From NCBI RefSeq assembly GCF_000027125.1, contig NC_017626.1: DNA of 64,000 bases, one strand, 5' to 3'. How positions within the stretch are numbered: the first letter of the stretch is position 1; every line of letters begins with the position of its first letter. The position numbers and the translations under genes are program-made. This DNA comes from Escherichia coli 042 (GTDB lineage: Bacteria > Pseudomonadota > Gammaproteobacteria > Enterobacterales > Enterobacteriaceae). The notes under the pieces are model-generated. The model was not told the DNA's origin. It did not search any database and saw nothing but the letters and a program-made list of their open reading frames with translations. Of the stretch, positions 4,237-52,503 are shown piece by piece.

Positions 4237-5778
4237 ATGCGTCTGGAAGTCTTTTGTGAAGACCGACTCGGTCTGACCCGCGAATTACTCGATCTACTCG
4301 TGCTAAGAGGCATTGATTTACGCGGTATTGAGATTGACCCCATTGGGCGAATCTACCTCAATTTTGCTGAACTGGAGTTTGAGAGTTTCAGCAGTCTGAT
4401 GGCCGAAATACGCCGTATTGCAGGTGTTACCGATGTGCGTACTGTCCCGTGGATGCCTTCTGAACGTGAGCATCTGGCGTTGAGCGCGTTACTGGAAGCG
4501 TTGCCTGAACCTGTGCTCTCTGTCGATATGAAAAGCAAAGTGGATATGGCGAACCCGGCGAGCTGTCAGCTTTTTGGGCAAAAATTGGATCGCCTGCGCA
4601 ACCATACCGCCGCACAATTGATTAACGGCTTTAATTTTTTACGCTGGCTGGAAAGCGAACCGCAGGATTCCCATAACGAGCATGTCGTTATTAATGGACA
4701 GAATTTCCTGATGGAGATTACGCCTGTTTATCTTCAGGATGAAAATGATCAACACGTCCTGACCGGTGCGGTGGTGATGCTGCGATCAACGATTCGTATG
4801 GGCCGTCAGTTGCAAAATGTCGCCGCCCAGGACGTCAGCGCCTTTAGTCAAATTGTCGCCGTCAGCCCGAAAATGAAGCATGTTGTCGAACAGGCGCAGA
4901 AACTGGCGATGCTAAGCGCGCCGCTGCTGATAACCGGTGATACCGGCACCGGAAAAGATCTCTTTGCGTATGCCTGTCATCAGGCAAGCCCACGCGCGGG
5001 CAAACCCTATCTGGCGCTGAACTGTGCTTCTATCCCGGAAGATGCGGTCGAGAGTGAATTGTTTGGTCATGCCCCGGAAGGGAAGAAAGGGTTCTTTGAG
5101 CAGGCGAACGGTGGTTCGGTACTGCTGGATGAAATAGGTGAGATGTCACCACGGATGCAGGCGAAATTACTGCGTTTCCTTAATGATGGCACTTTCCGTC
5201 GGGTTGGCGAAGACCATGAGGTGCATGTCGATGTGCGGGTGATTTGCGCTACGCAGAAGAATCTTGTCGAACTGGTGCAAAAAGGCGTGTTCCGTGAAGA
5301 TCTCTATTATCGTCTGAACGTGTTGACGCTCAATCTGCCGCCGCTACGTGACTGTCCGCAGGACATCATGCCGTTAACCGAGCTGTTCGTCGCCCGCTTT
5401 GCCGACGAGCAGGGCGTGCCGCGTCCGAAACTGGCCGCTGACCTGAATACTGTACTTACGCGTTATGCGTGGCCGGGAAATGTGCGGCAGTTAAAGAACG
5501 CTATTTATCGCGCACTGACACAACTGGACGGTTATGAGCTGCGTCCACAGGATATTTTGTTACCGGATTATGACGCCGCAACGGTAGCCGTGGGCGAAGA
5601 TGCGATGGAAGGTTCGCTGGACGAAATCACCAGCCGTTTTGAACGCTCGGTATTAACCCAGCTTTATCGCAATTATCCCAGCACGCGCAAACTGGCAAAA
5701 CGCCTGGGCGTTTCGCATACCGCGATTGCCAATAAGTTGCGGGAATATGGTCTGAGTCAGAAGAAGAACGAAGAGTAA
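4237..5778 (+). CDS. tyrR: Transcriptional regulator TyrR (sigma54-type AAA+ domain, C-terminal HTH)
   Basis: ATG at 4237 gives MRLEVFCEDRLGLTRELLDLL..., 513 aa; GDTGTGK Walker A, GAFTGA-like region. Confidence 0.9.
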   Translation: MRLEVFCEDRLGLTRELLDLLVLRGIDLRGIEIDPIGRIYLNFAELEFESFSSLMAEIRRIAGVTDVRTVPWMPSEREHLALSALLEALPEPVLSVDMKSKVDMANPASCQLFGQKLDRLRNHTAAQLINGFNFLRWLESEPQDSHNEHVVINGQNFLMEITPVYLQDENDQHVLTGAVVMLRSTIRMGRQLQNVAAQDVSAFSQIVAVSPKMKHVVEQAQKLAMLSAPLLITGDTGTGKDLFAYACHQASPRAGKPYLALNCASIPEDAVESELFGHAPEGKKGFFEQANGGSVLLDEIGEMSPRMQAKLLRFLNDGTFRRVGEDHEVHVDVRVICATQKNLVELVQKGVFREDLYYRLNVLTLNLPPLRDCPQDIMPLTELFVARFADEQGVPRPKLAADLNTVLTRYAWPGNVRQLKNAIYRALTQLDGYELRPQDILLPDYDAATVAVGEDAMEGSLDEITSRFERSVLTQLYRNYPSTRKLAKRLGVSHTAIANKLREYGLSQKKNEE

Positions 5779-5783
5779 GCGCG

Positions 5784-5818
5784 AATATGCCTGATGGTGC
5801 AACACCATCAGGCATATT
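5784..5818. terminator. Bidirectional rho-independent terminator between convergent tyrR and tpx
   Basis: Perfect 15-bp inverted repeat AATATGCCTGATGGT / ACCATCAGGCATATT with 5-nt loop. Confidence 0.55.
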
Positions 5819-5821
5819 AAC

Positions 5822-6328
5822 TTATGCTTTCAGTACAGCCAGAGCTGCTTCGTAATCCGGCTCGGTGGTGATTTCATCCACCAGCTGGCTGAAAATCACA
5901 TTGTCATTTTCATCAATAACCACAACGGCACGCGCTGCCAGACCTTTCAGTGGGCCATCAGCAATTGCCACACCGTAGGCTTGCAGGAATTCAGCGTTAC
6001 GGAAAGTGGAGAGGGTGATAACGTTGTTCAGACCTTCTGCGCCGCAGAAACGAGACTGGGCGAACGGCAGATCGGCAGAGATACACAGCACAACGGTGTT
6101 GTCGATCTCGGTTGCCAGTTGGTTAAACTTACGTACTGATGCGGCGCAAACACCGGTATCAATACTCGGGAAAATGTTCAGCACTTTGCGTTTACCCGCA
6201 AACTGACCGAGGGTGACGTCAGACAGATCTTTTGCCACGAGAGTAAAAGTCTGCGCTTTGCTACCCGCCTGCGGGATGGAATTGGCGACTGTAACCGAGT
6301 TGCCCTGGAAATGAACGGTTTGTGACAT
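5822..6328 (-). CDS. tpx: Thiol peroxidase Tpx
   Basis: 168 aa, recognised Tpx sequence ([22 protein letters not shown]...). Confidence 0.9.
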
Positions 6329-17415: not shown

Positions 17416-17931
17416 TTACAGCAAAAGATAACCTTCGTGGCGTAATAACCACTCTTTTCGCTGAACTCCGCCTGCATATCCGGTCATGGTACCGTTTCTG
17501 CCAATGACCCGATGACAAGGCACAACAATGCTGATGGGATTCGATCCGTTTGCCGCACCAACGGCACGCGCCGCACCAGGGCGGCCCAATTGTTCAGCCA
17601 GTTGGCCGTAATGCATTACCTGCCCGCAGGGGATTGTGCGTAATGTTTTCCAGACTTCGCGCTGAAATGGCGTCCCCCCCGTGGCAGTGGGAAGCGTATC
17701 AATAATGCTAAGATTACCGGCAAAATATTCACGAAGCTTGTCGCTTAAACCACCTGGGTTGGTGGCAGAAATGCGTTCATAGCCTTCTTTGCGGTAATGG
17801 ATGTCCAGCAGCTGCACCATGCGTTCGCTGTACTCTTCCCATTCAACCGCCCGCAGGCGAAATTGCTCATCGCAAATCACCCACAGTGGACCCAGTGGCG
17901 TGACAATTTTTTCTTCAAGTAATCTCAGCAT
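17416..17931 (-). CDS. ogt: O6-methylguanine-DNA methyltransferase Ogt
   Basis: 171 aa, active-site PCHRV motif. Confidence 0.9.
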
Positions 17932-17941
17932 CCGTTCTCTC

Positions 17942-19468
17942 TTAAGACAAACGTGGGTAAATCCCCGGACCTATCGGCAGACCGACAAGATACCACGCCA
18001 GCAACATCAGCAGCCATACCACCAAAAAGATAAGTGGATAGGGCAAAACTAACGAATAGTAAGTACCCAGTTTCGCGTCTGGTTTGTAACGTTGCAGGAA
18101 TCCAAGAAACAGTGGAACAAAAGGAGATACCGGCGCTAAAGGCAATACGGATGAGTCGGCAATACGAAAGAGGATTTGCGCAAATGCCGGGTGAAAGCCA
18201 AGTAGCATAAACATCGGTACGAAAATGGGGGCCAGAATCGACCAGATTGCGGAACCGCTGGCGATAAACATGCATAAGAAAGAGGAAAGCAACGCCAGAC
18301 CGACAAACGCCGGGATGCCGCTAAGCCCTGAACTTTCCAGTATATCGGTCAGCCCCACGGCGATGAATTTCCCCATGTTGCTCCAGTTAAACATGGCGAC
18401 AAACTGGGCGAGGGGAAAAACCATCACGATAAATCCCGCCATCTCTTTCATCGGTTCAATCATTAAATGCGGTAAATCCGCCTGACGTCGAATTGTGCGG
18501 GTAGCGATGCCATAAGCCAGCGAGACCACAAAGAAAAAAAGAATGATCAGTGGCACGATACCTTTAATAAAGGGGGATGGCATCACGGTGTGATTAATCG
18601 GATCGCGCAATATCCCGTTTTCCGGGATCACCATCAGCGCAATCGCAGCAATAAAAAGTAGCGATACGACACCTGCTATGCGTAAACCAAAACGCTGACT
18701 TTCGGTTAATGTCTGCAGTTTCTCATCGCTGTTTCCCTGCCATTGACCTAAACGTGGCTCAATGATTTTGTCGGTTATCAGGCCGCCAACAATCGTCAGT
18801 ACGACTACGGAGCTGGCCATAAAATACCAGTTATCAATTACACTGACGTGCATTTGCGGATTGAACGCAGCCGCAGCCTCCGTGCTGATCCCCGACAGCA
18901 ACACGTCGGTTGTGACAATCAGTAAATTAGCCGTAAAGCCGCAACCTACGCCTGCAATGGCGGCCAGTAAACCTGCAACTGGATGCCTGCCCACCGCCAG
19001 AAAAATCAGCGCACCCATCGGTGGCATGATCACTAACGCCGCATCGGAAGAAATGTGGCTAAAAAAAGCAATAAACAGCACCATATAACTGGCGTAGCGG
19101 GCATTCACATGCGATGCCATTTTAACCATCAACGCTGGCAGTAAGCCGACGCGCTCCGCCAGACCGGCACCTAAAACCAGCGCCAGGATCGCTCCAAGTG
19201 GAGCAAAACCGCTAAAGTTTTTAATAACATTGGGTAAAAACCAGTGTAATACTTCCACACTGAGCAGGTTTTTCACGACCACCGGCGTACCATCGGTCGG
19301 GTTTTTCGCACTGACGCCAAAGGCCGACAAAATTGCTGTCGTCACCATGAGTACGATAATCAAATAGATAAAGAGCAAAAAAGGATGGGGCACCTTGTTA
19401 CCAATTCTTTCGACCCAGCCATAGAGCTTCCCGGATTGGGAGGACGACGGTATGGATGACATACTCAT
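17942..19468 (-). CDS. abgT: p-Aminobenzoyl-glutamate transporter AbgT
   Basis: 508 aa from MSMSSIPSS..., polytopic membrane protein. Confidence 0.85.
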
Positions 19469-19504
19469 GGGCATTCCTCGTTTGTTGTGTTTGCGTTGTT
19501 GTTG

Positions 19505-20950
19505 TTATTTTAAAGGTGACGGTGTCACGTTTTTCGGGATAGGGCAGTGATACGGTTGCGTGTCCGTAACTTGCTGATGCTCTTGTTGGCATTCTTGCAA
19601 TAGCCCTGAATCAATGAAGAGATTAAGTGTGGTTGCTGCTATAGTTTTCGCCGCCAGCAGCATTCCTTTATGAGCAATAGATGTTCGCCCCTGGCTAACC
19701 AGTTGCCATGTATGTAGCGGGGTACCGACGGCAAAACAGGGACTGAAACACTGGGCAACAGGCAGTTTCCAACTGACGTCGCCGACATCAGTTGATGCCG
19801 CAAGCACGTTATCGGTGGCGGCATATGGAGCGACTTCATTCGCCAGTACCGTTTCACGATGACGTAGTGCAAAAGCCTTGCCGTTTTCGCCACCGGTTGC
19901 AGCGATATTATTCAGACTGTTTTGACGATCGTTGAGGGTGAGCGTAGCCTGAATTTGTTTCGCAAAAGCCAGTTCTTCGCAGTTCCATTCCGGGGTACCA
20001 AAATGGGATAGGGCTCGGTACATGGCATTTTCTAAGGTGCGATTCGGGAGATAACTGGAACAGGCTTTGTCGAAGCGGCATTCAACCGTGGTTTCGGTCA
20101 TCAATGCCGCACCTTCGGCGATTTTGGCGACCCGATCATAAATTTGCTGCACATCGGTCATTTCGGGGGCGCGGATAAGATAAAGCACTTCTGCCTGCGC
20201 CTGGACCACGTTGGGCGAGATCCCGCCGCTATCTGTGATGGCATAGTGTACGCGCGCTTTTTCAATAATATGTTCGTTGAGGAAGTTGGTGCCAGTGGTC
20301 ATCAACGTTACGGCATCAAGGGCGCTGCGTCCCAAATGAGGGGAATTCGCGGCATGTGCTGCGATCCCTTTAAAGCACCATGATGCCTGAATGTTTGCCA
20401 GCGTGCGGGTATTGAACATACCGGCAAAGGCTTCCGGGTGCCAGGTGAGTGCCGCATCCACATCATCAAATACCCCCTCGCGGACCATGAACGTTTTACC
20501 CGAGCCGCCTTCTTCGCCAGGACAACCATAAAAGCGCACCGTGCCGCATTGCCCATATTGTTCCAGCCATTTCTTGACGGCTATTGCTGCGGCAAAGGCG
20601 GCGGTTCCCAGCAAATTGTGTCCGCAACCGTGACCATTTTCACCGGGCGTCGCGGATGTAGGTTGCGCGCAACCTGCTTGCTGACTTAAACCTGCCAGGG
20701 CGTCATATTCCCCCAGCAGGGCGATAACCGGTTTGCCTTGACCAAACGAAGCAATAAAGGCATTTGGGATATTGCCTACGTTGCGGGTAACGGTGAAGCC
20801 TGCAGACTCCAGCGCCGAAGCCAGATGCTCCGCTGACCAGAACTCTTCAAAACGTGTTTCTGGATGATCCCAGATTTGATCGGCAATATCGGTATAACGT
20901 TGGCGATCGGCTTCAATCGCATCGTCGATAAAACGATAGATTTCCTGCAT
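19505..20950 (-). CDS. abgB: p-Aminobenzoyl-glutamate hydrolase subunit B (M20 peptidase)
   Basis: 481 aa, M20 family metal-binding motifs. Confidence 0.85.
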   Translation of the reverse strand: MQEIYRFIDDAIEADRQRYTDIADQIWDHPETRFEEFWSAEHLASALESAGFTVTRNVGNIPNAFIASFGQGKPVIALLGEYDALAGLSQQAGCAQPTSATPGENGHGCGHNLLGTAAFAAAIAVKKWLEQYGQCGTVRFYGCPGEEGGSGKTFMVREGVFDDVDAALTWHPEAFAGMFNTRTLANIQASWCFKGIAAHAANSPHLGRSALDAVTLMTTGTNFLNEHIIEKARVHYAITDSGGISPNVVQAQAEVLYLIRAPEMTDVQQIYDRVAKIAEGAALMTETTVECRFDKACSSYLPNRTLENAMYRALSHFGTPEWNCEELAFAKQIQATLTLNDRQNSLNNIAATGGENGKAFALRHRETVLANEVAPYAATDNVLAASTDVGDVSWKLPVAQCFSPCFAVGTPLHTWQLVSQGRTSIAHKGMLLAAKTIAATTLNLFIDSGLLQECQQEHQQVTDTQPYHCPIPKNVTPSPLK

Positions 20951-42334: not shown

Positions 42335-43021
42335 ATGACCCCAATAAAAATATTTATGACTATTGCTGATTTCAAACGGCCTAAATTGGAGCTCCCAAAC
42401 GGGGCAAACAAACTACTACTGCACTCTTGCTGTGCTCCATGTTCCGGTGAAGTGATGGAGGCGCTTCAGGCCTCGGGAATCGACTATACCATCTTTTTCT
42501 ACAACCCGAACATTCATCCTCAGAAAGAGTATTTAATTCGTAAGGATGAGAATATTCGCTTTGCTGAACAACACGGCGTGCCATTTATTGATGCTGATTA
42601 CGACACAGACAACTGGTTTGAACGTGCCAAAGGAATGGAATGGGAGCCCGAGAGGGGGATCCGTTGTACCATGTGTTTTGACATGCGTTTTGAGCGGACA
42701 GCGCTGTACGCTGCTGAAAATGGTTTCAGTGTGATCAGCAGTTCACTGGGCATTTCACGCTGGAAAAATATGCAGCAGGTTAACGACTGTGGGCGGCGAG
42801 CCGTCGCGCATTATCCGGGCATGGTGTACTGGGATTATAACTGGCGCAAGCAGGGCGGCTCGTCCCGCATGATTGAAATCAGCAAGCGCGAAAAATTCTA
42901 TCAGCAGGAATATTGTGGCTGTGTGTATTCTCTGCGCGATACCAATCTACACCGCAAATCTCAGGGACGCCCTCTTATCAAAATTGGTCAACTCCACTAC
43001 GGTAAAGAAGAGAAGGAGTGA
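42335..43021 (+). CDS. DUF208 / epoxyqueuosine reductase QueH-like protein (putative Fe-S enzyme)
   Basis: 228 aa with Cys motifs [14 protein letters not shown] and EYCGCVYS, as remembered for the QueH family. Confidence 0.55.
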
Positions 43022-45665: not shown

Positions 45666-45741
<76 letters not shown>

Positions 45742-45744
45742 TAT

Positions 45745-45819
<75 letters not shown>

Positions 45820-47906: not shown

Positions 47907-49364
47907 ATGAATACATCTCATGTAAGAGTTGTTACTCATATGTGTGGGTTCCTGGTTTGGCTCTATAGTCTTTCAATGTTGCCACCAATGGTTGTAGCAT
48001 TGTTTTATAAAGAAAAAAGCCTGTTCGTTTTCTTTATAACTTTCGTTATATTTTTTTGCATTGGTGGCGGAGCGTGGTATACAACTAAGAAATCTGGTAT
48101 TCAATTACGTACCCGTGATGGGTTTATTATAATTGTAATGTTTTGGATTTTGTTTTCTGTTATTAGTGCATTCCCTTTATGGATTGACTCAGAACTTAAT
48201 TTAACGTTTATTGATGCTCTATTTGAAGGGGTTTCTGGAATAACAACAACAGGAGCAACTGTAATTGATGATGTTAGTTCATTACCTCGGGCATATTTGT
48301 ACTATCGGTCACAGTTAAATTTTATAGGTGGCTTAGGAGTTATTGTTCTGGCGGTTGCTGTATTGCCATTATTGGGTATTGGTGGTGCAAAGCTTTATCA
48401 GTCAGAAATGCCAGGGCCATTTAAGGATGACAAACTTACTCCCCGCCTGGCCGATACGTCACGGACACTTTGGATAACTTATTCTTTATTAGGTATTGCT
48501 TGTATTGTCTGTTATAGACTTGCAGGAATGCCTTTGTTTGATGCTATTTGTCACGGGATATCCACAGTTTCGCTTGGTGGTTTCTCAACTCATAGCGAGA
48601 GTATCGGATATTTTAATAACTATTTGGTTGAGCTGGTGGCTGGTTCTTTTTCCCTGCTATCGGCTTTCAACTTCACCCTTTGGTATATTGTTATTAGCAG
48701 GAAAACGTTAAAACCTTTAATCAGAGATATTGAACTTCGTTTCTTTCTGTTAATAGCCTTAGGGGTGATCATTGTTACCTCTTTCCAGGTCTGGCATATA
48801 GGTATGTATGACTTGCCTGGAAGTTTTATTCATTCGTTTTTTCTTGCCAGCTCCATGCTCACTGATAATGGTTTAGCTACGCAGGATTACGCAAACTGGC
48901 CCACGCACACGATAGTGTTTTTGCTGTTGTCAAGTTTCTTTGGGGGATGTATAGGTTCAACTTGTGGTGGAATTAAGTCACTTCGATTTCTTATACTTTT
49001 CAAACAAAGCAAACACGAGATAAACCAGCTTTCTCATCCCAGAGCGTTGTTGAGTGTAAATGTAGGAGGGAAGATAGTTACAGATCGTGTAATGAGGTCT
49101 GTATGGAGTTTCTTTTTTCTTTATACTCTCTTCACGGTGTTTTTTATACTGGTGTTAAATGGTATGGGATATGATTTTCTTACATCATTTGCAACAGTGG
49201 CTGCATGTATTAATAATATGGGATTAGGTTTTGGGGCTACTGCATCGTCATTCGGAGTGCTTAATGACATTGCAAAATATTTAATGTGCATAGCTATGAT
49301 TCTTGGTCGCCTTGAAATTTATCCTGTTATTATATTGTTTTCAGGTTTTTTTTGGCGCTCCTAA
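47907..49364 (+). CDS. trkG: Potassium uptake protein TrkG (TrkH family), prophage moron
   Basis: 485 aa from MNTSHVRVVTHMCGFLVWLYSL...; visibly AT-rich relative to flanks. Confidence 0.9.
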   Translation: MNTSHVRVVTHMCGFLVWLYSLSMLPPMVVALFYKEKSLFVFFITFVIFFCIGGGAWYTTKKSGIQLRTRDGFIIIVMFWILFSVISAFPLWIDSELNLTFIDALFEGVSGITTTGATVIDDVSSLPRAYLYYRSQLNFIGGLGVIVLAVAVLPLLGIGGAKLYQSEMPGPFKDDKLTPRLADTSRTLWITYSLLGIACIVCYRLAGMPLFDAICHGISTVSLGGFSTHSESIGYFNNYLVELVAGSFSLLSAFNFTLWYIVISRKTLKPLIRDIELRFFLLIALGVIIVTSFQVWHIGMYDLPGSFIHSFFLASSMLTDNGLATQDYANWPTHTIVFLLLSSFFGGCIGSTCGGIKSLRFLILFKQSKHEINQLSHPRALLSVNVGGKIVTDRVMRSVWSFFFLYTLFTVFFILVLNGMGYDFLTSFATVAACINNMGLGFGATASSFGVLNDIAKYLMCIAMILGRLEIYPVIILFSGFFWRS

Positions 49365-49501
49365 TATATGGCTGATTTATAATTGTGAGTTTAATATTAT
49401 ATTGACTCACTCATTGATCCAATACCTAACTTTACCAGCAACACCTCCGCCCCCAGTAGCACTGGCTGCTGGGGTGCGTTTTATTCATAAAGCAAGGCTG
49501 T

Positions 49502-50293
49502 ATGAGCGAGAAATTGAAGATCGTCTATCGCCCTTTACAAGAACTGTCTCCGTATGCACACAACGCCAGGACACACAGCCCTGAGCAGGTGGCACAACTG
49601 GTAGAAAGCATTAAGCAATTCGGCTGGACTAATCCGGTGCTGATTGATGAAAAGGGCGAAATTATTGCTGGTCACGGTCGCGTTATGGCGGCTGAAGTGC
49701 TCAAAATGGATTCCATTCCGGTCATCGTTCTGTCTGGTTTGATGGATGATCAGAAAAAGGCGTACCGCCTGGCAGATAATCGCCTGCCGCTGAACGCTGG
49801 CTGGGATGAAGAACTGTTGCGGATGGAGCTGTCGGAGCTAATCAATGCTGATTTTGATATCTCCCTGACAGGATTCAGCCCGACAGAAATTGATGAACTG
49901 TTGACGGATGTTTTGCCAGGTACAGGAAATGAGGAGGAGCCGTACACGACGAAAATTGATACGCCTGTTTATGAGCCGTCGGGCGATAAACCGGACATCA
50001 GTGAGCTGTACGACGATACGAAAACTCAGGAGCTGATCAGCCGGATACGTTCGGCGTCCCTTGAGCCCGATATCGAAAAATTCCTCCTGTGCGCGGCAGA
50101 ACGCCACACGGTGTTTAATTTCAGCAGAATTGCGGACTATTACGCTCACGCCCCCGCTGAAATTCAGTGTTTTTTCGAGGAGTCGGCGCTGGTGATCATT
50201 GATTATCAGCAGGCTATTGAAAATGGATTTGTCCGGATGACGCAGCGCATGGTGGAGATCATGCATGGTGGTGAGGAGGAGGAATATGCGTGA
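49502..50293 (+). CDS. ParB-like nuclease domain protein (apparently full-length counterpart of the K-12 ynaK remnant)
   Basis: 263 aa; N-terminal ParB/Srx-like domain (LSPYAHNARTHSPEQV...GHGRVMAA). Confidence 0.65.
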   Translation: MSEKLKIVYRPLQELSPYAHNARTHSPEQVAQLVESIKQFGWTNPVLIDEKGEIIAGHGRVMAAEVLKMDSIPVIVLSGLMDDQKKAYRLADNRLPLNAGWDEELLRMELSELINADFDISLTGFSPTEIDELLTDVLPGTGNEEEPYTTKIDTPVYEPSGDKPDISELYDDTKTQELISRIRSASLEPDIEKFLLCAAERHTVFNFSRIADYYAHAPAEIQCFFEESALVIIDYQQAIENGFVRMTQRMVEIMHGGEEEEYA

Positions 50294-51218
50294 TGATTTT
50301 TGCGCCTTTATTCTGACTCACGGGCGACCGGACAAAGTTCTGACTTACCGGACGTTGCGTCGTGCTGGCTATACCGGGAAAATTTTTATCGTTGTTGATG
50401 ATGAAGATAAGACACGGCATCAGTACATGGCTGAATTTGGTGAACAGGTGCTGGTGTTTTCCAAAGCCGATATCGCCAGTCGTTTTGACGAAGCCGATAA
50501 TTTCGGTGACCGCCGCTCAATTTTTTACGCCCGTAATGCCTGTTTCGACCTGGCAAAACTGGTCGGGTGTAAATACTTCATTCAGCTCGATGATGATTAT
50601 CACGAGTTCCAGTTTCGGGTGGATCGCAACTATGACCAGGCCTATTTTCCGATAAGGAAACTGGATGCGATCCTTTCTGAAATGCTGGCGTACTACGAAT
50701 CAATACCTGCTCTTTCCATCGCTATGTCGCAGGGCGGGGATTTTCTTGGTGACAATGGCGGCCATGCTTCGTGGGTGAAACGCAAGGCAATGAACAGCTT
50801 TATCTGTTCGGTTGATCGACCGTTCTCATTCATGGGGCGCATTAACGAGGATGTGAATACGTACACGAATCTCGGTCGCTGTGGTGAATTGTTTATGACG
50901 ATCGGTGCTGTCCAGTTAGGGCAGAAACAGACGCAGAAAAACAGCGGCGGAATGACCGAGCTGTATCTGGATTCCGGAACCTACGTTAAAAGTTTTTACT
51001 CCGTCATGTATGCGCCGTCGTGCGTAAAAATCTCACTGATGGGTGCCAGCCATAAACGCATTCACCATCAGGTCACCTGGAACAACGCTGCAGTAAAAAT
51101 CCTTCACGAAAAATACAGGAAGAAGACACCCTGCATATCAATAGGGGTGACAAATGATTCCATATTCGAAAGTCGAGTCTCTGGCAGCGTGCCGGATGAC
51201 TGCACAACAAATCGCTGA
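50286..51218 (+). CDS. Uncharacterised phage protein with DxD-type motif (possible GT-A-fold nucleotide-sugar transferase)
   Basis: ATG 50286 after GAGGAGG RBS; 310 aa; FIQLDDDYHE and N-terminal AFILTHGRPDKV resemble GT-A signatures; assignment tentative. Confidence 0.45.
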   Translation: MRDDFCAFILTHGRPDKVLTYRTLRRAGYTGKIFIVVDDEDKTRHQYMAEFGEQVLVFSKADIASRFDEADNFGDRRSIFYARNACFDLAKLVGCKYFIQLDDDYHEFQFRVDRNYDQAYFPIRKLDAILSEMLAYYESIPALSIAMSQGGDFLGDNGGHASWVKRKAMNSFICSVDRPFSFMGRINEDVNTYTNLGRCGELFMTIGAVQLGQKQTQKNSGGMTELYLDSGTYVKSFYSVMYAPSCVKISLMGASHKRIHHQVTWNNAAVKILHEKYRKKTPCISIGVTNDSIFESRVSGSVPDDCTTNR

Positions 51219-51405
51219 CGTTCTGGATGTTGATCTGAACCGACTGAAAGAAAATCGGGAAGCAATGACAGATTTTTATGCGGCCATCCGTAAGGGCAGA
51301 GCGAAAGGTGAAGCCGAGTTACGAGCGGCATTGTTTAAGCTTGCCAGAAAAGGGGATGCCTTTGCTCTGCGCGAACTACTCAGGGTGGATAAAAATCAGG
51401 ACTAA
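51154..51405 (+). CDS. Small putative DNA-binding protein preceding terminase (start uncertain)
   Basis: 83-aa ORF overlapping 3' end of previous gene; HTH-like MTAQQIADVLDVDLNRLK. Confidence 0.4.
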   Translation: MIPYSKVESLAACRMTAQQIADVLDVDLNRLKENREAMTDFYAAIRKGRAKGEAELRAALFKLARKGDAFALRELLRVDKNQD

Positions 51406-51408
51406 CTG

Positions 51409-52503
51409 ATGAGCAGACCGGACTGGGGGGCGTTGCAGCAGGAGTATATTGCTGAATACACCCGCTCCGGTATATCTCCGGTGGCATGGTGTGAAGCAAG
51501 GGGACTGAATTACGCAACAGCCCGTCGTTACATCAAAAAACCTCCGAAAAATGCGCAGACAGAAATGCGCAAAACTGCGCAAAAAAGTGCGCAGAAAAAA
51601 TCTGCGCAGACTGCACAAAAGCGGAACGAAAAATCTCAGGAAAAAAAGCCAGTATTCGATGCGGGCCTGAATGAGGGCGACGCGGAGGAATTTTCGTTCT
51701 GTCCCGATGAATTCGGCATTTCTGACCAGCAGGCTAAGTTTGCGATGCTTGTTGCTCAGGGGAAAAAGCCGACAGAGGCGTACCGACTAGCCGGTTATGA
51801 GGGGCAAGGTGCGACAGCTAACAGCAACGCCAGTCGTATGCTTAGAAATGCCAGGGTTTTTCGCGCTATCAGCTACTTCCGCAATCAGTACCAGAAACGC
51901 TATACCGCAGACCTGGATTTACTGGTGAGTCAGTTGATGGCCATTGTCCTGGCCGACCCCAATCAGCTTGCACAATTTCGCCGTGTTAACTGCCGTTATT
52001 GCTGGGGCGAGAATCATCTCTACCAGTGGCGCGATATAGCAGAATTCGACAAGGCAGCGGCGCAGGCTTCCAGAGATGGCAAACCCGAACCGGAATATGG
52101 AGGCCTCGGCTTTGTTGATAACGCCATACCCAATCCGGACTGCCCGAAGTGCTGCGGTGAGGGAACGGGACAGCTTTATATGGCTGATACCACTCTGCTT
52201 GATGGGGATGCGCGGCAATTATATGCAGGGGCAAAACTCGGAAAATTCGGCGTTGAGATCCTGCTGGAGGATAAGGCTGCCGCCCGGCGTGAATTGTTGC
52301 GTTTGCTTTCTGCTGGCGGGGCTTTATGTGCAGATAAGCGGCTACAGGAACTGGAAATTGAACGACGCAGAATGGAAAACCAGAAGCTGCGCAAAGAGAT
52401 CGAAACGGTGGAAGATAATGAACATCCCCAGCCTGTGGCGATCAATATTAATGTGGTTGATGCCAGAGTAAGGAGTGATGAAGATGATCTCTCCGACGCT
52501 TAA
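51409..52503 (+). CDS. Terminase small subunit (putative)
   Basis: 364 aa, N-terminal HTH (GISPVAWCEARGLNYATARRYIKK), directly upstream of terminase large subunit. Confidence 0.6.
   Translation: MSRPDWGALQQEYIAEYTRSGISPVAWCEARGLNYATARRYIKKPPKNAQTEMRKTAQKSAQKKSAQTAQKRNEKSQEKKPVFDAGLNEGDAEEFSFCPDEFGISDQQAKFAMLVAQGKKPTEAYRLAGYEGQGATANSNASRMLRNARVFRAISYFRNQYQKRYTADLDLLVSQLMAIVLADPNQLAQFRRVNCRYCWGENHLYQWRDIAEFDKAAAQASRDGKPEPEYGGLGFVDNAIPNPDCPKCCGEGTGQLYMADTTLLDGDARQLYAGAKLGKFGVEILLEDKAAARRELLRLLSAGGALCADKRLQELEIERRRMENQKLRKEIETVEDNEHPQPVAININVVDARVRSDEDDLSDA

Follow-up and report, generated by a model that had tools for sequence, protein, structure and literature searches.

A TAGT-family glycosyltransferase gene translationally coupled to a ParB-like partner gene next to the terminase genes of an Escherichia coli 042 prophage

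Phage DNA glycosylation has so far been understood solely as the decoration of 5hmC, 5hmU or 5-hydroxycytosine. The founding characterised member of the families PF20691 (TAGT) and phrog_842 is the beta-glucosyl-HMC-alpha-glucosyltransferase of phages T2 and T6, which transfers sugar to DNA (PMC13216743); this T-even enzyme adds a second glucose onto alpha-glucosyl-5hmC and requires a dCMP hydroxymethylase and an alpha-glucosyltransferase. Sugar transfer to DNA has also been described for the phage GT-A enzymes associated with 5mYOX (TET/JBP) and for the trypanosome enzyme JGT (bioRxiv 10.1101/2023.12.21.572611). The 5mYOX-associated enzymes act post-replicatively on 5hmC or 5hmU provided by a neighbouring methyltransferase/5mYOX and have ParB and terminase genes as frequent neighbours; in metaviromes, ParB, glycosyltransferase and terminase genes often co-occur with 5mYOX (PMC13229309). 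Many TAGT or GT-A genes in recent surveys are not accompanied by a precursor enzyme (PMC13216743; bioRxiv 10.1101/2023.12.21.572611), such "solitary" TAGTs being present in 288 of 753 phages (PMC13216743).

ParB-like proteins have been linked to DNA-modifying enzymes in two ways. The phage protein ParB176 is required to activate the thymine dioxygenase 5mYOX176 on dsDNA (O'Toole et al., PNAS 2026, PMC13229309); proteins of this type lack a DNA-binding domain, being built of an N-domain that binds NTP, a disordered linker and a C-terminal domain, and are encoded beside the post-replicative DNA-modifying enzyme that they activate; in the same study a stable complex of ParB and enzyme was not trapped and ParB mutants in the NTP site stayed active (PMC13229309). 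Fusions of a ParB N-domain to a DNA methyltransferase are enriched in prophages, and the ParB fold has been described as an NTP-binding module (Kaljevic et al. 2025, PMC12704722). A protein acceptor is also known in the TAGT/JGT-related superfamily: GREB1, a large animal protein, O-GlcNAcylates ER-alpha, a DNA-binding transcription factor (PMC7968844).

The locus studied here belongs to a Rac-like prophage of E. coli 042 and lies in a stretch of 64,000 nucleotides (RefSeq assembly GCF_000027125.1, contig NC_017626.1), which was analysed as a whole and is referred to as the window. As the initial annotation had reported, trkG (47907-49364) and the terminase genes flank two overlapping genes. 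The pair comes after Q and the lysis genes. The upstream ORF in the positive strand (49502..50293; phrog_620, E = 1.5e-88) encodes a ParB-like protein of 263 aa, the full-length YnaK, called here the partner (AF2 pLDDT 79), and the downstream one (50286..51218, positive strand) encodes a 310-aa glycosyltransferase. The GC content drops to 32-40% across trkG, and a consensus scan revealed a terminator-like hairpin with a 10-bp stem and a T-rich tail (49451..49474, positive strand), which probably marks the end of a low-GC trkG moron; the partner gene starts 28 nt past it. The transferase ORF would give 317 aa from its first ATG (50265) and 310 aa from the ATG at 50286. The latter is the start used by PGAP for the APEC O1 copy and is preceded by a strong Shine-Dalgarno sequence, GAGGAGGAGG (50273..50282, positive strand, read directly from the sequence), embedded in the codons of the partner's acidic tail; with this start the two genes overlap by 8 nt at the partner stop (ATGCGTGA). 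The 3' end of the transferase gene is in turn overlapped by orf83 (51154..51405), a small gene of the TerS-like HTH family phrog_309 (E = 8e-23), followed in the same strand by the genes for the terminase small subunit TerS (51409..52503, 364 aa; phrog_51, E = 1.7e-76) and the large subunit TerL (52475..53785; phrog_2 and phrog_10250). The late region was 99-100% identical to that of APEC O1 and the early region was mosaic. When calculated against diverged copies, dN/dS was 0.10-0.15 for the partner gene and 0.05-0.12 for the transferase gene, which rules out chance ORFs. Since, in addition, copies of the pair (at least 80% of the 2-kb stretch covered) occur in 866 of 5,426 complete E. coli genomes, about one in six, both ORFs are regarded as genuine.

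The TAGT family was reportedly defined by Iyer et al. in 2013. The 310-aa protein had been left unassigned in the initial annotation, which noticed its DxD-like motif and its GT-A-like N-terminus; a family-level assignment exists, as residues 8-222 matched PF20691 (model 4-205 of 205, E = 1.3e-34), the only Pfam family matched, and the protein belongs to phrog_842 (E = 2.4e-103). PF20691 was carried by all 120 transferase homologues among the matches listed. A fold search, which could have pointed to a non-transferase family, returned a transferase fold, with SpsA (1qg8, E = 5e-5), K4CP, ColGalT1 and glycogenin as the top Foldseek matches in the PDB; a PDB sequence search gave no match, and NCBIfam has no model for this protein. 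The AF2 model had a pLDDT of about 90 or higher in the N-half and was poor beyond residue 150 or so; because of this low-confidence C-half, the fold call rests on the Rossmann-like N-half and on the Pfam match. The segment FIQLDDDYHE (residues 98-107) contains the putative metal and nucleotide-sugar motif D102-D103-D104 (50589..50597, positive strand), located by alignment and motif match. R14, D102-D104 and E188-D189 were invariant in one alignment (A1); in a more divergent one (A3), D102-D104 and D189 were still invariant and the Arg and Glu positions were consensus-conserved, not invariant. The catalytic motifs were kept across more than 30 diverged sequences, and the R...DDD...ED pattern, like the superfamily itself, is common to this protein, the 5mYOX-associated phage enzymes and JGT. 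These sequence features support the identification of the 310-aa protein as a GT2-like GT-A glycosyltransferase of the TAGT family with a DxD motif.

Beyond the Pfam domain, residues 223-290 are basic (+6), highly conserved and unfolded when modelled alone in AF2, and the last 20 residues or so form an extension specific to E. coli, most homologues having 283-290 aa. Among the best 150 representatives, the transferase was found fused to P-loop kinase-like, SAM-methyltransferase, second glycosyltransferase and sulfotransferase-like domains, and no ParB::TAGT fusion was seen. Some E. coli copies are labelled "GREB1-related protein" by PGAP, in agreement with the superfamily shared with GREB1. 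A Gtr-type enzyme for serotype conversion or another cell-surface glycosyltransferase was also considered and rejected, as GtrA/GtrC-type neighbours are missing and Pfam gives TAGT alone. No PADLOC defence model matched either the transferase or orf83.

The 310-aa protein shares its Pfam and PHROG family, the GT-A fold and the DxD motif with the T2/T6 enzyme. In a tblastn search of 50,697 phage records (E <= 1e-5), however, no T2/T6-type record was matched, and the best T4-like match was Aeromonas phage Ah1, with 24.7% identity (E = 1e-5) and neither ParB nor a C-terminal-domain partner within +/-4 kb. The enzymes that would supply glucosyl-5hmC, namely dCMP hydroxymethylase and an alpha- or beta-glucosyltransferase, are absent from this prophage. 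Because the similarity is remote and both the supply enzymes and a partner in Ah1 are absent, the product name "beta-glucosyl-HMC-alpha-glucosyltransferase", spread through PHROG, is an over-annotation here and is misleading.

The partner is made of a ParB/Srx N-domain (residues 1-136, 49502..49909), an acidic linker, a novel C-terminal domain (residues 147-243, 49940..50230) and an acidic tail, all encoded in the positive strand. The AF2 model delimited the N-domain at 1-135, a disordered stretch at 137-155 and a helical C-terminal domain, a layout matching that described for the ParB proteins on which thymine dioxygenases depend; in this case the gene overlaps that of its client, and the client is not a dioxygenase but a glycosyltransferase, which would depend on the partner. 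Both an HMM match to PF02195 (ParB_N) and the fold place the N-domain in the ParB/Srx group. Box I contains N21 and R23, Box II reads G57-H58-G59-R60 where GERR is expected, and Box III contains D92-N93; across the partners N21, G57, R60 and D92-N93 were conserved, and Box II had His or Asn at the position of its catalytic Glu (GHGR or GGNxR). The N-domain is a ParB/Srx module of the presumably NTP-binding type. Its nearest sequence relatives are the N-domains of the ParB-methyltransferase fusions (phrog_498, E = 3e-50; PADLOC MTase_II, E = 6e-37), the PADLOC match being confined to the ParB-like N-part of the MTase_II model. In those fusions the ParB N-domain is joined covalently to a methyltransferase, whereas here the ParB-like protein stands alone as a polypeptide, has a C-terminal domain of its own and is coupled to a glycosyltransferase. 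The term nuclease used in the initial annotation is a historical name and finds no support here, since apart from ParB/Srx itself the searches revealed neither a fold nor a motif of a nuclease. A canonical partition ParB was discarded because the TIGR00180 score (36 bits) was below the cut-off of 58.45 and no ParA gene was found in the neighbourhood. The partner has a pI of 4.5 and a net charge of -26 (-10 in the stretch past the N-domain), partners of all lineages are acidic (pI 4.1-4.9), and with such a composition it appears too acidic for a DNA clamp.

The initial annotation had overlooked a separate C-terminal domain that makes up half of the "ParB" protein. It begins with an extended segment rich in Tyr, Thr and Pro, YTxKIxxPxYEP, whose Tyr residues are invariant and whose Thr (T149) is near-invariant; the motifs AAxRHxVF, YYxH and SALVIID belong to the helical bundle that comes next. 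Conservation was higher than in the ParB domain (55% vs 40%), with seven invariant polar residues (Y148, Y157, R201, H202, Y214, E226 and D234) and the near-invariant residues H216, Q222 and S228. Its profile found nothing among PDB sequences, and its alignment found nothing significant in Pfam. This domain was found only beside TAGT and was retained where the ParB domain had been lost. The C-terminal domain, previously undescribed, is the constant partner of the transferase, and the ParB domain is not.

The arrangement of the two genes was examined in other viruses. In a first scan, covering 80 loci, the end of the partner gene fell in all 80 either 1-17 nt into the TAGT gene or 1 nt ahead of its start, and in a second, more distant scan a partner lay immediately 5' of TAGT in 76 of 77; in the lone apparent exception a methyltransferase gene alone sits between the C-terminal-domain gene and TAGT. 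Start-stop coupling was counted in about 170 loci of bacterial and archaeal viruses, which span enterobacteria, Lactobacillus (phages jlb1 and c5), Porphyromonas (28% identity), high-GC phages and Haloarcula (virus HHTV-2). The partner was likewise found 5' of kinase::TAGT and TAGT::methyltransferase fusions, and three representatives at 50% identity, on contigs of 1-2 kb, each had an overlapping upstream gene. Sequenced phage isolates with the pair include Escherichia phage vB_EcoS-606R9 and its relatives and Salmonella phage SPF_0923. Genes for sugar tailoring are sporadically attached to the cassette (methyltransferase, second glycosyltransferase, sialyltransferase-like and sulfotransferase-like). 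The pair, which the initial annotation had treated as a unit to be checked by co-occurrence, was kept in every locus examined and is a conserved unit under purifying selection, with dN/dS of 0.05-0.15 over both genes. In almost all loci it is located directly 5' of TerS/TerL, and in phage c5 its genes are the first after cos. In enterobacteria orf83 accompanies the pair; it was present past TAGT in 59 loci, with 55-100% identity among those tabulated. In more distant phages TAGT is followed by a gene for a full phrog_309/Terminase_4 TerS.

The genes that would provide an acceptor by known chemistry were also searched for. No TET/JBP, ThyA-like hydroxymethylase or other 5hmC/5hmU-making or base-modifying gene was found in this prophage, and no 5mYOX or C5-methyltransferase in it or in the flanks of its relatives. 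Precursor genes were likewise absent from the deposited annotation of the complete genomes of Lactobacillus phages jlb1 and c5 and from within +/-10 kb of TAGT in three Pfam-annotated contigs. As no hydroxymethyl-pyrimidine pathway was found in the prophage or its relatives, the transferase has no acceptor by known chemistry, and 5hmC or 5hmU made by the phage, judging from gene content, cannot serve as such. Glycosylation of a canonical DNA base is not known for any GT-A enzyme.

We propose, with a probability of roughly 0.5, that the two proteins form a glycosyltransferase of two subunits, expressed late and directed at phage DNA, with the partner as activator. In this model the 310-aa protein would be the catalytic subunit, in which D102-D104 would hold the NDP-sugar and a divalent metal and E188/D189 would serve as the base. 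The conserved, acidic C-terminal domain of the partner would provide the contact to the basic C-terminal third of the transferase, and its ParB/Srx N-domain would bind NTP and serve to regulate or activate the enzyme, the partner being neither a nuclease nor a DNA binder. Translational coupling at the head of the late (packaging) operon would ensure that both subunits are made together. Once replicated, the phage DNA would be glycosylated by the complex, either ahead of packaging or in the course of it, and the modified progeny DNA would be shielded from nucleases or other DNA-sensing defences in the next host. The interaction between the proteins, the activation, the DNA acceptor and the protective role are all four what we infer. 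The two-subunit arrangement is suggested by the charge complementarity between the partner and TAGT residues 223-290, and the activator role by the precedent of ParB-like activators of DNA base-modifying enzymes (PMC13229309). A DNA acceptor is suggested by the characterised phage and trypanosome members of the superfamily, which transfer sugars to DNA, and a role in DNA modification by the closeness of the N-domain to those of the ParB-DNA-methyltransferase fusions. The strict gene coupling, the location at the terminase genes and after Q and the lysis genes, the purifying selection and the sporadic sugar-tailoring genes also speak for the model. The missing precursor gene, the action of GREB1 on a protein and the acidity of the partner cast doubt on a DNA acceptor. 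The model is also weakened by the poor C-half of the transferase structure prediction and, as regards the precedent, by the ParB-enzyme complex that escaped trapping and the NTP-site mutants that stayed active (PMC13229309). The functions put forward in the initial annotation for the pair, namely DNA modification, anti-restriction or an association with packaging, are plausible. A more specific version, which we offer only tentatively, is a self-sufficient post-replicative glycosylation of DNA without any hydroxymethyl-pyrimidine precursor. The transferase, held and activated by the C-terminal domain of the partner, would attach the sugar directly to a canonical base, to a DNA end or to the backbone; alternatively, the C-terminal domain would itself make the acceptor.

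The main rival to the DNA-acceptor reading, rather improbable in our estimation, is that the sugar is transferred to a protein: the partner itself, a packaging protein (TerS or portal), or a virion or host protein, with the partner as substrate, adaptor or chaperone. GREB1 shows that the fold can accept proteins, its substrate being a transcription factor (PMC7968844), and this possibility would also fit the lack of a DNA acceptor pathway in these phages, the position of the cassette at the head of the structural operon, a partner acidic unlike DNA binders, and the YTxKIxxPxYEP segment, whose T149 is a candidate glycosylation site. Against it, all characterised phage and trypanosome TAGT members act on DNA, the ParB/Srx N-domain is elsewhere fused or coupled to DNA-modifying enzymes, and a non-exhaustive search yielded no documented virion glycosylation for these phages. 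An unlikely reading is a self-contained two-step pathway of new chemistry, in which the acceptor is created or presented by the C-terminal domain of the partner, acting as an enzyme in its own right or contributing half of a composite active site. Such a role would agree with a conservation above that of the ParB domain, with the invariant and near-invariant polar residues from Y148 to D234 and with the persistence of a domain without known relatives after ParB loss; the domain, however, is small (about 95 residues), helical and strongly acidic and shows no recognisable cofactor motif, and its conservation could reflect a tight interface with a very conserved transferase.

A function in defence or exclusion, by which the pair would glycosylate (or further glycosylate) the 5hmC/5hmU DNA of superinfecting phages or otherwise interfere with them, would account for a TAGT without its own precursor pathway and for the abundance of the pair among E. 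coli prophages; prophage glycosyltransferases hypermodifying invading genomes have been suggested (bioRxiv 10.1101/2023.12.21.572611). We consider it quite unlikely, given that Q, the lysis genes and the terminator-like hairpin all precede the pair, whose place in the late operon is not that of a moron expressed in lysogens, that it comes first in phage c5, whose deposited annotation has no integrase or repressor, that the terminase genes always adjoin it in hosts as unlike as Haloarcula and Lactobacillus, and that the transferase matched no PADLOC defence model. Finally, the two genes could be unrelated neighbours or the decaying relic of a ParB-5mYOX-GT system, with the ParB-like protein serving in partition or packaging or as a nuclease and the glycosyltransferase being a moron or relic. 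The frequent company of ParB, glycosyltransferase and terminase genes with 5mYOX in metaviromes (PMC13229309) and the truncated cassettes in K-12 and in some L. delbrueckii phages would be in line with this view. It is disfavoured to the point of being barely credible, as the start/stop overlap is kept in about 170 loci of bacterial and archaeal viruses, dN/dS is low in both genes, the dedicated partner domain is found only beside TAGT, and neither a ParA gene nor a TIGR00180 score above the cut-off was obtained.

The system preferred here, a two-subunit glycosyltransferase acting on phage DNA, would thus belong to a known family (TAGT) in the form of an uncharacterised, widespread variant. 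Orphan TAGTs of this class gain an anatomy, i.e., a translationally coupled partner, an undescribed constant domain and a place at the head of the packaging operon, and are shown to be under selection. As a member of the class resides in ordinary E. coli prophages, it can be tested by standard genetics and nucleoside LC-MS, and the outcome may be a new DNA modification or anti-defence function in temperate coliphages, a second class of clients for ParB activators, or phage protein glycosylation. Glycosylation without a precursor, if true, would be a new DNA modification chemistry, present in about one sixth of the complete E. coli genomes and in phages of Firmicutes, Bacteroidetes, Actinobacteria and haloarchaea.

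The literature on ynaK offered no relevant paper among the top-ranked matches. The initial annotation had named ynaK and ydaY as the fragments left at this place in K-12. For ydaY this did not hold, as it is a tail-region gene, flanked in APEC O1 by the genes for the tail tube and the tape measure (window positions 61356-61715, approximately), and no remnant of the 310-aa gene. K-12 ynaK, on the other hand, does correspond to the 5' part of the ParB-like gene: only query bases 3-356 matched, and the K-12 gene represents its first 85 codons or so.

The element in the window was a Rac-type prophage at ttcA with the order int, xis, recET, cI/cro-like, replication genes, NinB, Q, two tRNAs, lysis genes, trkG, the gene pair studied here and packaging/head genes; its late region shared 99-100% identity with E. 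coli APEC O1 and its early region was mosaic, which assigns the window to another strain. The pair, located between trkG and the terminase genes, comprised an ORF call of 263 aa in the positive strand (49502-50293) and, in the same strand, a transferase ORF (50265/50286-51218) of 317 or 310 aa depending on the start chosen. The ATG at 50286, which is also the PGAP start in APEC O1, came after the Shine-Dalgarno sequence GAGGAGGAGG (50273-50282), and its overlap with the stop of the 263-aa ORF was 8 nt long (ATGCGTGA). In 866 out of 5,426 complete E. coli genomes, a copy spanned at least 80% of a 2-kb stretch. K-12 ynaK corresponded to just the first ~85 codons of the 263-aa gene; ydaY, listed in the initial annotation as another K-12 fragment of this region, turned out to be a tail-region gene and no remnant of the 310-aa gene. 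Upstream, trkG (47907-49364) was a low-GC moron (32-40% GC) inserted between Rz and the ParB-like gene, ended by a terminator-like hairpin (49451-49474) and absent from this position in most related prophages. The tRNA-Thr(tgt) (45666-45741) and tRNA-Gly(tcc) (45745-45819) genes, both in the positive strand, were flanked by Q on one side and the lysis genes on the other. The nin region contained, about 3 kb further upstream, a putative tRNA-modification gene (42335-43021, positive strand), whose APEC O1 homologue PGAP names epoxyqueuosine reductase QueH; its sole match was phrog_3217 (unknown function), and no NCBIfam model matched.

The 310-aa protein matched Pfam PF20691 (TAGT, TET-associated glycosyltransferase; E 1.3e-34) and phrog_842 (E 2.4e-103), with no NCBIfam model and no PDB chain similar by sequence. 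The AF2 model was confident only for the N-terminal ~150 residues, which Foldseek grouped with SpsA, chondroitin polymerase, ColGalT1 and glycogenin, i.e., a GT-A fold; residues 223-290, in the part that AF2 failed to fold alone, were basic. The motif FIQLDDDYHE occupied residues 98-107. Invariant residues were R14, D102-D104 and E188-D189 in the alignment of closer homologues, and D102-D104 plus D189 in the more divergent one, in agreement with the R...DDD...ED set of phage GT-A DNA glycosyltransferases and trypanosome JGT (bioRxiv 10.1101/2023.12.21.572611). In a full HMMER scan over 1.84 billion representatives the family proved large, with 1,499 clusters (50% identity) at E<=1e-3, 708 of them at E<=1e-30. 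TAGT is the second-glucose transferase of T2/T6, and the PHROG name 'beta-glucosyl-HMC-alpha-glucosyltransferase' was taken from that enzyme (PMC13216743); the T-even enzymes were very distant, the sole T4-like match by tblastn at E<=1e-5 being Aeromonas phage Ah1 (24.7% identity).

By sequence, the 263-aa partner was closest to the N-domains of proteins in which ParB is fused to a DNA methyltransferase (phrog_498, E 3e-50; PADLOC MTase_II, E 6e-37), and nothing pointed to the nuclease proposed initially. As a partition ParB the protein scored below the cut-off, and its Box II was GHGR, not GERR. The N-domain was followed by a disordered acidic linker and a helical domain at residues 147-243 (confident AF2 model) with the signature YTxKIxxPxYEP ... 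AAxRHxVF ... IAxYYxH ... QxLxExSALVIID ... AIxxG. Mean pairwise identity was 55% in this C-terminal domain versus 40% in the ParB domain, and the partner was strongly acidic in all lineages (pI 4.1-4.9, net charge -14 to -47).

The coupling of both genes was surveyed in two non-random samples, each restricted to the 80 top-scoring loci out of more than 500 confirmed matches. In the 80 IMG/VR loci nearest the E. coli protein (TAGT identity 57-99%), the partner ORF in every case ran 8-14 nt past the TAGT start or stopped 1 nt short of it. A further 77 loci came from distant representatives used as seeds: in 69 of them both the N-domain and the C-terminal domain stood immediately upstream of TAGT, in four the contig end fell within the C-terminal domain, and in three a stand-alone C-terminal-domain protein was present; the single apparent exception (L141) had a stand-alone C-terminal-domain gene, a methyltransferase gene and then TAGT. 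The coupling also extended to the Lactobacillus phages phi jlb1 and c5, to Haloarcula virus HHTV-2, to a Porphyromonas phage with an identity of just 28%, and to short metagenomic and long Pfam-annotated contigs; the partner also preceded fused genes of the P-loop-kinase::TAGT and TAGT::methyltransferase types. Vibrio phage pv27 (191 kb) encoded a 139-aa protein with the C-terminal domain only, 116 nt upstream, and no partner was found in the T4-like phage Ah1. Therefore, the C-terminal domain is the constant partner of this TAGT clade, the ParB domain being usual yet dispensable. Both genes were under purifying selection (dN/dS 0.05-0.15). The transferase gene was fragmented or reduced to ~45 codons in the L. 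delbrueckii phages KJ564037 (Ld17), AY739900 (LL-Ku) and KJ564036 (Ld25A), so the cassette is dispensable in those lineages; c5, PMBT4 and phiLdb matched 88-89% of the transferase length, phiLdb in two pieces.

In the window, the pair comes after Q and the lysis genes, a position that points to late expression. In nearly all loci it was followed by a TerS-like HTH protein (phrog_309 or Terminase_4), TerL and the portal, and in the cos phage c5 it constituted ORF1-ORF2, directly after cos. In E. coli prophages a block of ParB, TAGT, orf83 and a 364-aa TerS (window 49502-53785 versus loci L006, L007 and L045) was combined with TerL genes of at least two unrelated types; thus, this 'TerS' segregates with the cassette and not with TerL. 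The small orf83 (51154-51405, positive strand; 83 aa, 69 aa in the PGAP version) overlapped the final 65 nt of the transferase gene and matched the HTH portion of phrog_309 'terminase small subunit'. It accompanied the pair in all enterobacterial loci, besides the separate 364-aa TerS (phrog_51); in distant phages a full-length phrog_309/Terminase_4 TerS came next after TAGT. The TerS ORF (51409-52503) was open in the window, and for APEC O1 PGAP annotated it as a pseudogene containing an internal stop; compared with locus L002 (TerS 5012-6106), the window had seven differences over 17.6 kb, one inside the TerS gene.

The phage and trypanosome relatives characterised so far depend on 5hmC, glucosyl-5hmC or 5hmU. 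No TET/JBP, ThyA-like hydroxymethylase, C5-methyltransferase or other base-modifying gene was found in the prophage of the window (covered by PHROG scans and by the PGAP annotation of its APEC O1 homologue), in the deposited annotation of the complete jlb1 (38-kb) and c5 (32-kb) genomes, or within 10 kb on either side in three Pfam-annotated contigs; the 5mYOX search drew on PHROGs, precomputed Pfam hits and annotation already available. Solitary TAGTs have been reported in 288 of 753 GT-encoding phages, with a function 'yet to be defined' (PMC13216743), and base-modification enzymes are missing from the neighbourhood in ~65% of mined phage GT contigs (bioRxiv 10.1101/2023.12.21.572611). A subclass of phage thymine dioxygenases requires, on dsDNA, ParB-like activators without a DNA-binding domain (PMC13229309), and in prophages the ParB-CTPase fold, which binds CTP, ATP or GTP, is often fused to DNA methyltransferases (PMC12704722). 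Neither the TAGT family nor the concept of DNA modification assisted by ParB is new; our literature search found no experimental work on the ParB-TAGT cassette, and a terminase-adjacent clade with an obligate partner domain and no precursor pathway is, as far as we could find, uncharacterised. This clade is very widespread, common E. coli prophages included.

The best-supported reading, to which we give a probability of about one half, is a two-subunit, late-expressed, partner-activated glycosyltransferase acting on phage DNA around packaging time. The C-terminal domain of the partner would dock on the transferase, the TAGT enzyme would be held and activated by its partner, and the ParB/Srx N-domain would be an NTP-dependent regulatory module; the complex would modify phage DNA around packaging, in a presumably protective role. 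The main rival, a rather unlikely one, is a protein acceptor; GREB1, a eukaryotic relative, glycosylates protein (PMC7968844). Less likely still, a C-terminal domain that is itself catalytic or creates the acceptor comes next. The operon position, the coupling and the selection count against a defence function expressed in the lysogen, which is improbable, and also against unrelated or vestigial genes, the least credible of these explanations.

In a few lineages the cassette had sugar-tailoring neighbours: a methyltransferase, a second GT, a sialyltransferase-like gene, a sulfotransferase-like domain and, once, a radical SAM gene. Serratia/Yersinia-like prophages (L045, 3912-6017; also L059 and L062) carried, directly upstream of the ParB-like gene, three additional genes, sialyltransferase-like (phrog_4603), phrog_6804 (unknown function) and methyltransferase (phrog_6564), which may serve glycan elaboration. 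Fusions in the TAGT clade (P0126, P0134, P0148, P0144, P0152 and P0168) added a SAM-methyltransferase (N- or C-terminal), a second GT or a sulfotransferase-like domain; the methyltransferase was a separate gene in L141, L159 and L160. The radical SAM gene lay directly upstream of the ParB-like gene in L173 (80-3270) and matched no specific family above its cut-off; the transferase there carried a fused P-loop kinase-like domain at its N terminus (P0143). Another phage with the pair (L172) had four consecutive GT2-family glycosyltransferase genes directly after the major capsid gene (17837-20316), which may be a virion glycosylation cluster.
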